Shown here: positions 17,503 through 18,385 of the stretch, in pieces
How positions within the stretch are numbered: the stretch's first letter is position 1
Layout of the letters: each line of letters opens with the position of its first letter
DNA from: Candidatus Rhabdochlamydia sp.
GTDB taxonomy: Bacteria > Chlamydiota > Chlamydiia > Chlamydiales > Rhabdochlamydiaceae
Length of the DNA stretch: 64,000 nucleotides
Assembly (NCBI GenBank): GCA_051648645.1
Contig: JBOFFP010000010.1
Coordinates: 32,001 to 96,000 of the forward strand
Direction: 5' to 3'
Made by a program: the position numbers and the translations under genes
Notes under the pieces: model-generated
The model's input: the letters and a program-made list of their open reading frames with translations, nothing else
What the model was told of the DNA's origin: nothing
The model's database searches: none

Positions 17503-17665
17503 TTGAGATTTCCTTAAATGAATTTATAAAATGATTTTGTTTTAAGATTTTTTGGAGATAAAAAATTGTTTTTTTATAAATAATGACTAAAAGTTTAATT
17601 TTTTGAGGAAATTTATGATAGGAAATACAAATTTCAATCAGATAGTAAACTCTTTCTTAAATTGA
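17503..17665 (+). repeat. Duplicated promoter + RBS + leader module (other copy at 18669-18840)
   Basis: ttgagatttccttaaatgaatttataaaatg...tgaggaaatttatgataggaaata aligns with ttgacatttccttaaatgaatctataaaatg...tgaggacattatgataggaaata. Confidence 0.85.
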
Positions 17666-18385
17666 TTGGCTGATAATTTACCAAAGGATCAAAAAATGGA
17701 TAAAACGAGCCCTATTAATCCAATACAGATAGAACAACCTAAGGATCAGATTCACATACGCAATAATACAGTAGGTCATTCTAATCAAAACAATTGGTAC
17801 ACGTATTTTGGAAATGGAATGTTTAGAGCTATTCGCAGCGTTGGTAAAATTCCCACTAATTTGATGCAAGTTTGGAAGAACAGCACAATGCCTCAAAAAG
17901 CTATGCATATAGCTATTGCCGTTTATTGTACAGCAACTACAGCCTATATAATATATCTTGAATCTCAGAATGAGCAGACTTCTATAGACAACTTGCATGA
18001 AACAAACAATGCTTCTTTGCTTTTAGTCCAACCTTCATTAGAAAAAGCAATACAAGGACCATCAAAAAATTACAATTTTTTTTTAAATTTGGAAGCAGAA
18101 AAATGTCGGGAGCAGTTTTATGAATCAGGCACAGAAAAAACCAGTCTGAGCAGAAGGATTAGTATGCATGTTTGTAATGACCTAATAGATAAAGTATGTA
18201 AAACAAGTGGTGACATGATTCAAATCATGCTCAGATTAAAAGCAATACCGGAAAGTTTACAACAGAAAATAAGTAGTGTAAGAGAAGTAATAGAAGATTT
18301 AGAATACATACAGAATAAGTTTTCTTGTGAAAATGCGGGTCTGCTTCTAAGGCTACCAAGTAGACAGAGATTCAAGAATCCATAG
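17615..18385 (+). CDS. Hypothetical single-TM protein, paralog 2; conserved leader fused in frame but interrupted by TGA at 17663-17665 (possible pseudogene or restart at 17666/17696)
   Basis: ATG 17615 gives MIGNTNFNQIVNSFLN*, immediately followed in the same frame by ORF 17666-18385. Confidence 0.7.

Follow-up and report, generated by a model that had tools for sequence, protein, structure and literature searches.

In bacterial 5′UTRs, upstream ORFs and translationally coupled leader peptides are a familiar feature. For type III effectors, terminal reassortment was reportedly described by Stavrinides, Ma and Guttman in 2006. Promoter capture by tandem duplication is likewise an established process, and the account of it on which we draw (PMC11111574) cites Anderson and Roth 1978, in whose work his genes were fused to novel promoters, and Blount et al. 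2012, for the cit duplication.

We focus here on a locus of Candidatus Rhabdochlamydia sp. that can be set beside all three. The window, by which we mean the whole stretch of 64,000 nucleotides that was analysed (contig JBOFFP010000010.1 of assembly GCA_051648645.1, positions 32,001 to 96,000), comes from a genome of 1.67 Mb in 12 contigs with 35.5% G+C. It holds two paralogous genes, A1 and A2, and a member of a second family, S2. The promoter, ribosome-binding site (RBS) and first codons of an S gene lie ahead of A2, separated from it by an in-frame TGA. An earlier sequence-only reading took this arrangement for a portable promoter and secretion-signal module that had been fused to an unrelated gene. 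The evidence presented below points instead to a tandem duplication, at whose join point the second A copy probably acquired the promoter of its neighbour.

Organization of the locus

On the plus strand, the order is A1, a 62-nt spacer, the S-derived module, A2, a 283-nt spacer with a hairpin, S2 and then sufBCD (Table 1). In the S2 protein, a leader of about 33 conserved N-terminal residues precedes a hydrophobic helix (residues 37-55), and eight cysteines lie within the last 26 residues. None of A1, A2, S2 and a 267-aa neighbour belongs to a Pfam or NCBIfam family above cut-off. AlphaFold models were too poor for a fold search (mean pLDDT 40.4 for A2 and 53.3 for S2), and a search of the ESM Atlas with S2 gave plant clusters at a score of 0.76 only, which is uninformative.

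Table 1. Features of the A1-A2-S2 locus, in window coordinates
Feature	Coordinates	Strand	Remarks
A1 5′UTR	16741..16792	+	left boundary of unit 1; contains GGAG (16785-16788); homologue of 17666-17711
A1	16793..17440	+	215 aa; from the ORF list; genus-restricted; one hydrophobic helix, residues 63-81 (hydropathy)
Spacer between A1 and copied S promoter	17441..17502		without terminator-like fold
P_S1, copied S promoter (predicted)	17503..17532	+	TTGAGA, 18-nt spacer, TAAAAT
Copied S 5′UTR	17533..17614	+	GAGGA at 17605-17609
S gene remnant	17615..17665	+	16 codons (MIGNTNFNQIVNSFLN) and TGA; present-day short upstream ORF
Duplication join point	17661..17666		between last S2-matching base and A-type block TTGGCT
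A-derived 5′UTR of A2	17666..17695	+	AAGGA at 17684-17688
A2	17696..18385	+	229 aa from ATG 17696, MDKTSP...; A1 paralogue
Unit-2-specific 248-nt stretch	18352..18599		contains last 11 A2 codons and the hairpin
Hairpin 3′ of A2	18401..18449	+	A-run and U-run; likely terminator
P_S2, S2 promoter (predicted)	18669..18698	+	TTGACA, 18-nt spacer, TAAAAT
S2	18781..19035	+	84 aa; intact S family member, small cysteine-rich

The copied S promoter and leader

The sequence-only reading had described a duplication of about 160 nt of promoter, RBS and leader, and this is confirmed: 17501-17661 matches 18667-18833 with 81% identity (E 1.9e-36). When 18660-18860 was searched against the whole genome, this was the sole strong second copy of the S2 5′ region among the 26 matches listed; the next best (E 2.8e-4) is confined to 49 nt around a paralogue's start codon. 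Segment by segment, each tested against 500 shuffles, P_S1 and P_S2 are identical at 28/30 positions from −35 to −10, the S 5′UTR copy agrees with 18699-18780 at 65/85 positions, and leader codons 1-16 agree with S2 at 43/54, a 6-nt gap included; no shuffle reached the observed value in any of the three. The remnant and the S2 leader differ by five base changes in four codons, all of them amino-acid-changing and none synonymous, and by a two-codon gap.

This similarity is peculiar to the pair. Upstream identity is 0.81 between remnant and S2, versus 0.48-0.65 in eight other S-gene pairs, and by the genome search and a four-way alignment the promoter DNA is common to these two and to no other S gene. 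The 16-codon stump at 17615 is also the sole truncated S copy in a six-frame HMM search. The bodies of S2 and A2 are unrelated and A2 matches A1 instead, which bears out the view that an S promoter, RBS and leader stand directly upstream of a gene of another family. A weak DNA match to promoter and leader elsewhere (G005:C66:481-581, E 6.1e-4) was rejected as AT-rich intergenic sequence lacking an S-like ORF.

The in-frame stop and the join point

From ATG 17615, the frame reads MIGNTNFNQIVNSFLN, meets the TGA at 17663-17665 and continues as LADNLPKDQKMDKTSPINPIQIEQ... in the same frame, just as had been stated, and the ORF that follows the stop is indeed paralogous to ORF 16793, with which it shares 49% identity over 214 aa (E 4e-62). 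The accompanying claim that the leader aligns with S2 across the stop fails, however. The last base that exactly matches S2 is 17661, two bases before the TGA, and the first solid block of A-5′UTR type, TTGGCT, begins at 17666, so that the TGA lies between the two; in a formal alignment of the leader regions, similarity stops before the TGA. Past it, identity to S2 drops to 27/52, and the global score is reached by 21 of 500 shuffles. In local alignment, the score of the 45 nt after the stop against S2 (codons 19 onward) is reached by 97 of 1000 shuffles, whereas 17666-17710 aligned with the region upstream of A1 (16741-16789) gives a score of 13 that only 7 of 1000 reach. MAFFT gives the same pairing of the post-stop stretch with the A1 upstream region, and shows A2 to be without the GTTATG of A1, which includes the A1 start codon, as a 6-nt gap. 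Judged by these alignments, the DNA between the stop and the body of A2 is derived from the A gene's own 5′UTR. Because this stretch is former A 5′UTR, the resemblance of LADNLPKDQKMDK to MGLSLSSRDQMVAK is best regarded as chance.

As for the stop itself, TGA closes 144 of the 722 stop-to-stop frames of at least 300 codons in the genome, and among 35 tRNAs ARAGORN found none with a UCA anticodon and no Sec tRNA, Trp being served by CCA only. Reassignment of TGA and selenocysteine were rejected on these grounds, and nothing suggests readthrough. A sequencing error, conceivable in itself, was also rejected as the main explanation, since the similarity to S2 ends at this point regardless. A TTG, at 17666, directly follows the TGA.

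These results bear on the proposal that a portable S promoter and secretion-signal module was fused in frame to A2, the fusion being later hit by a nonsense change or bypassed by readthrough or restart. Chlamydiae possess type III secretion. That the organism is a chlamydia fits the proposal, as do the unusually well-kept leader codons of the remnant (40/45) and the TTG right after the TGA, and the frames of leader and A2 coincide with a single stop between them. Such coincidence, which a former fusion would also show, has a one in three chance; here it depends on 4- and 6-nt gaps in a UTR-derived stretch of the MAFFT alignment. The better fit of the post-stop 45 nt to the A 5′UTR and the ordinary use of TGA as a stop speak against a fusion as well, and the distribution of the leader, to which we now turn, does the same.

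The S family and its leader

S genes number at least 24 in this genome, a figure given both by matches at E <= 0.001 (24) and by six-frame segments at E < 1e-4 (24). Each of eight congeners has between zero and two, and another 32 genomes from the same family and order have none. The members that were aligned (12 proteins of this genome) share one architecture, in which an N-terminus conserved over about 33 residues is followed by a hydrophobic helix and then by a Cys-rich tail that varies. NCBIfam returned nothing for two further members, and a term search of Rhabdochlamydia genome papers found no mention of the family in the passages it covered. In the R. helvetica genome, according to the relevant passage of its description, OmcA and OmcB were not retrievable (PMC6490308). 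Among the other S paralogues, leader DNA is 80-100% kept and the flanks are unrelated, which suggests concerted evolution within the family.

A profile of the first 45 residues, searched against 1.84 billion representatives (50% clusters), gave 50 matches, of which 49 are genuine, being proteins of 43-136 aa in which the leader begins at residue 1. At least two cysteines follow residue 45 in 45 of the 49; the other four have none, and three of these seem incomplete. In the leader proteins of at least 60 aa (n=46), a hydrophobic segment follows the leader (median start, residue 32), with a Cys-rich tail in most. The 50th match, a low-complexity protein of 4901 aa covering profile positions 15-27 only, was rejected. 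For a fusion with an open frame, residues 1-40 of the readthrough product, with X at the stop, were searched against 5.8 billion proteins in a word-indexed collection, a search that needs shared 5-residue words, and no protein of 140-448 aa matched leader and junction. By the profile and word-indexed searches together, the leader is therefore found on S-type proteins alone and no fused form is on record. Matches to a leader-start pattern at three loci in genome contigs and at six in metagenome contigs were dismissed as chance occurrences in unrelated organisms, the nine loci being without an A or S homologue (tblastn, E <= 0.01).

Two elements of the sequence-only reading thus lose their footing. 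With all 49 genuine matches S-type, a portable secretion-signal module is not supported; and with similarity to S2 ending at 17661 and no uninterrupted fusion found, a leader-A2 fusion later disabled by a nonsense change is not supported either. We consider such a fusion highly improbable. The S family itself is the larger lead, for it combines a conserved 33-aa N-terminus and a hydrophobic helix with hypervariable Cys-rich tails.

A probable tandem duplication

In a whole-unit MAFFT alignment, 16741-17662 (unit 1) and 17666-18834 (unit 2) are colinear throughout, each consisting of the A 5′UTR, the A gene, a spacer, the S promoter and 16 S codons, and the two stand head to tail. The one gap of 8 nt or more is the 248-nt stretch present in unit 2 only; neither this stretch nor the spacers have repeats elsewhere in the genome. 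The novel junction is flanked on its left by 17503-17661, matching 18669-18833, and on its right by 17666-17710, matching 16741-16789. Anatomy, boundaries and colinearity are directly visible in this alignment, and two colinear head-to-tail units with a single junction are the signature of a tandem segmental duplication.

We therefore regard it as probable, though well short of certain, that one tandem duplication placed A2 behind a captured S promoter at the join point, with its own ATG kept. The duplicated unit would have extended from some 52 nt upstream of A, through A and the spacer, to S codon 16. A1 would have kept its native upstream region and S2 would have been completed by the unduplicated rest of S, and at the join (17661-17666) the S promoter, the S 5′UTR and 16 S codons would have come to abut the 5′UTR of the second A copy. 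Since the TGA lies at the join, the S remnant would be an upstream ORF of 16 codons rather than the N-terminal part of A2, which would be translated from its own ATG 17696, within the former 5′UTR, the position of the A1 ATG having been lost in the 6-nt gap. A single event, an active P_S1 and the use of this start codon are the parts of the account that we infer.

There are only two A genes in the genome. Between them, dN/dS is 0.39 at a dS of 0.94, with an identity of 0.60 at third positions; both copies have thus long been under purifying selection. The age that this implies has to be reconciled with identities that are uneven across the unit. They amount to 28/45 in the A UTR, 216/318 and 210/318 in the first and second halves of A, and 32/62 in the spacer; in the S-derived part, they are 46/51 in the promoter core (17503-17553), 29/41 in the mid-UTR, 14/20 at the RBS and start, and 40/45 in leader codons 2-16. 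Promoter core and leader thus stand near 90%, versus 52-71% elsewhere, a contrast that fits a single old event only with added selection or gene conversion. Compared with the other non-coding parts of the unit (89/148), both the promoter core (Fisher p 4.6e-5) and the leader codons (p 2.4e-4) are significantly better kept, and both are also better kept than the third codon positions of A; mid-UTR identity is similar to the background. Such patchy, function-shaped conservation could reflect constraint on P_S1 or homogenising gene conversion from S2, and on balance it favours constraint.

The same figures can be taken to mean that there were two events, an older A1/A2 duplication and a later copying of the S module, or gene conversion from S2. 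On that reading, the module would be young and its high identity would need no selection. The gap between roughly 90% in promoter core and leader and 60% at both A third positions and other non-coding sites agrees with a young module, as does the absence of synonymous changes among the leader differences from S2, and the paralogue leaders conserved between unrelated flanks show how concerted evolution might act in the family. A young copy should, however, be uniform, whereas this one is patchy from segment to segment, its mid-UTR being no more alike than the rest of the unit. In addition, exact head-to-tail colinearity around just one junction is the product to be expected of one event, and an A1-type 3′ end followed by the spacer and S promoter is common to a contig from a relative, described below. 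We hold two events to be decidedly unlikely.

Transcription and translation of A2

Between 16600 and 19200, the best two plus-strand promoter-like sites are those at 18669 (11/12 consensus positions) and 17503 (10/12), that is, P_S2 and P_S1. The number of such sites in the region, 12, does not exceed the 12.2 expected from shuffles. Ahead of A1, the only plus-strand promoter-like site is at 16666-16693, a consensus match at 9/12 positions; as it lies upstream of the left unit boundary at 16741, unit 2 is probably without an A promoter. The copied S promoter, read-through from A1, or both probably account for the transcription of A2. The spacer between A1 and P_S1 has no terminator-like fold (−3.3 kcal/mol, z +0.95), so that read-through may add to A2 transcription, whereas the hairpin 3′ of A2 folds at −22.6 kcal/mol (z −5.8), with none of 200 shuffles folding as well. 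Rfam gave only sub-threshold matches on this hairpin, to 3′UTR stem-loop families, and no match in the copied S 5′UTR; shuffles fold at least as well as the copied 5′UTR (z +0.43) and the junction (z +0.69).

One may ask, then, whether P_S1 matters at all. The same duplication could have left the remnant and P_S1 as a dead scar without a role, A1 and A2 being an operon served by read-through only. The open path from A1 into the remnant, with the first strong hairpin standing only after A2, would suit such a state, and promoter-like hexamers are as common in this region as in shuffles. On the other hand, both hexamers of P_S1, their spacing, the GAGGA and the remnant ATG are all intact, and the promoter core is kept well above the other non-coding parts of the unit. 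A scar devoid of function seems to us unlikely.

At the other extreme, the whole S 5′ cassette may be under selection, tying A2 to the expression of the S family, with the 16-codon upstream ORF setting A2 translation and the leader possibly serving as a recombination cassette; we rate this extended role as very unlikely. If it were true, the upstream ORF would terminate at the junctional TGA, with re-initiation 30 nt downstream. A bolder version would have the leader cassette moving 5′ ends between genes, and this locus would be its first capture outside the S family.

Regarding the start of A2 itself, the AAGGA of its 5′UTR is placed 7 nt upstream of ATG 17696, and product P0004 of the protein collection is A2 with this very start and 229 aa. 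Related proteins of the collection fall into two groups, P0005 (65% identical to A2) and P0009 starting MDKGS, where A2 has MDKTS, and P0006-P0008 starting MSTKP, which resembles the MS start of A1. The residues after MDKGS in P0005 and P0009 appear to resemble a translation of the A1 RBS and start region. With MDK in A2, P0005 and P0009 and MS in A1 and P0006-P0008, the MDK start looks like a shared derived shift into the former 5′UTR. We conclude that A2 most likely starts at ATG 17696; that the A2-type proteins of relatives start with MDK is a further argument against a fusion with the leader.

Relatives and history of the pair

Five other species of the genus carry, at the syntenic place, kdsB, a gene for 250 aa and then a different, older pair of A genes, the second of which is fragmented in three of the five; this place contains no S leader in any of them. 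A tree places A1 and A2 together with P0005-P0009 (support 97/95) and separately from both A types of the five species; the present A1/A2 pair therefore arose within a sub-lineage. P0005 and P0009 have an identical N-terminal part and differ in their C-terminal parts, that of P0009 being 79% identical to A1 and 48% to A2, and that of P0005 69% identical to A2 and 51% to A1. Since C-terminal halves of A1 type and of A2 type both occur in relatives, the duplication predates those relatives.

Public sequencing runs offer a second view. Eight runs were listed, each with at most 0.10 of the sampled words and none of those that contain them recorded as RNA, and Logan contigs of four of them (X1, X2, X4 and X5) were compared with the window, 17591-17711 being in no informative piece. 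The only contig identical to the window is one of 264 nt from X1 (18221-18484). A contig of 3516 nt at depth 10 (X4, record 14) leaves 17489-17711 uncovered, and the X4 comparison draws on 40 out of 99 differences and 24 out of 49 pieces. The 5′ part of its A gene lies on A2 (17712-18041; 65 differences in 330 nt), its A 3′ part and spacer on A1 (17130-17488; 32 differences and one gap in 359 nt), and its S part, preceded by 12 unmatched letters, on the S2 promoter and gene (18669-19099; 22 differences and 27 gapped positions). A1 and A2 (dS 0.94) are far more diverged from each other than the A1 3′ half is from this contig.

An A gene directly before a complete S gene thus exists in a relative, and the adjacency of A and S would be older than the join. 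As the duplication predates the relatives, the single A gene of the X4 contig may reflect either secondary loss or a collapsed k-mer assembly; a secondary loss may in turn have come about by recombination between the repeats.

Comparison with known systems

The comparison with systems described at the outset can now be made for each in turn. First of all, as in terminal reassortment, the 5′ end of one gene, with its promoter, RBS and first codons, stands upstream of an unrelated body. Unlike in terminal reassortment, the A2 locus lacks an uninterrupted frame, the common sequence ends at a stop codon, and the S module was on no other protein family in the searches run. Second, as with coupled leader peptides, a short ORF with a strong RBS ends 30 nt before the start of A2, which has an RBS of its own. 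Here, however, the short ORF is what a rearrangement left of an S gene, folding predicts nothing regulatory (z +0.43) and Rfam gives no match.

The locus is most likely a scar of the ordinary kind that duplications leave, rather than a novel secreted fusion protein, and A2 most likely owes its expression to a borrowed promoter. Two homologous pieces with an in-frame stop between them are not necessarily a broken fusion. The mechanism would be equally ordinary, as one new junction suffices to put a promoterless gene copy behind the promoter of its neighbour, and the locus would be a fresh instance of a known process. Its value lies in being an old, natural and retained example, in which both A copies are under purifying selection, the promoter core is kept above the local background and the captured copy, A2, has apparently shifted its start codon into the former 5′UTR. 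To our knowledge, bacteria seldom offer a view of such intermediates, and reduced intracellular genomes do so least of all.

Finally, the closest parallels are the his and cit duplications, as far as the account cited above describes them. As in those cases, there are two head-to-tail units with one novel junction and intact outer copies, and the second gene copy would lie behind the promoter of a neighbour, here the predicted P_S1. The his and cit duplications were laboratory events, seen soon after they arose, whereas the A1/A2 pair is old, with a dS of about 0.94; and, unlike them, it has been retained in the reduced genome of an obligate intracellular organism, where a 16-codon ORF, the remnant of the donor gene, still stands ahead of A2.

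Distribution and mosaic structure of the S family

The small Cys-rich S proteins form a family of at least 24 members in this genome, each of about 80–160 aa, and they share a common layout: about 33 strongly conserved residues at the N-terminus (consensus MLGxxNFNPxQSINSFLxPLGLxLSSKxQIIAK), then a hydrophobic helix, then a Cys-rich tail that is hypervariable. In 8 genomes from other species of the genus the copy number is 0–2 each, and 32 additional genomes from the family and order contained none. A profile search with the leader recovered about 49 clusters among 1.84 billion representatives, and no Pfam or NCBIfam family matched.

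Comparison of the paralogues shows that they are mosaics, with leader-coding DNA that is 80–100% identical between copies. In the pair at C1:428856 and C1:429190 (locus L022), identity of the leader DNA is 100% across nt 1–48 and 97% across nt 49–135, whereas neither the DNA upstream (0.57) nor the tail (0.49) is related. Retention of the leader DNA between unrelated flanks suggests either that the 5′ coding part evolves in concert or that the tails diversify rapidly.

Features of the S family and of the A gene neighbourhood (window coordinates unless a contig or locus is named)
Feature	Position	Remark
S family, in window	18781-19035, 7842-8177, 52582-52848	
S family, elsewhere in own genome	C1:428856, C1:429190, C5:51556-52696, C3:96068-96894	examples from at least 21 more
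Stretch of 248 nt	18352-18599	
Strong hairpin with A-run/U-run	18401-18449	inside 18352-18599; -22.6 kcal/mol
267-aa protein	15808-16611	conserved beside kdsB across genus
Different small protein, 98-100 aa	L010:354-656, L014:2474-2770	adjoins A genes of relatives

The A genes and their surroundings

The 248-nt stretch is found only in the second of the two duplicated units that carry the paralogous genes A1 and A2. It provides the last 11 codons of A2 and has no second copy in the genome.

Among the five congeners with an older A1-type/A2-type tandem pair, the second gene is intact in G001 and G006 and fragmented in the other three (G008 L010, G003 L011 and G005 L013). Two A proteins of close relatives, P0005 and P0009, are identical over about their first 95 residues, and the C-terminal part is of the A2 type in P0005 and of the A1 type in P0009. 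This pattern reflects either gene conversion between the two A copies in that lineage or chimerism of the short source contigs (969 and 936 nt).

The 267-aa protein next to kdsB matched no Pfam or NCBIfam family. The 98–100 aa protein of the relatives combines a hydrophobic helix with a VEGG motif and a tail that contains Cys, and its architecture appears similar to that of the S family.
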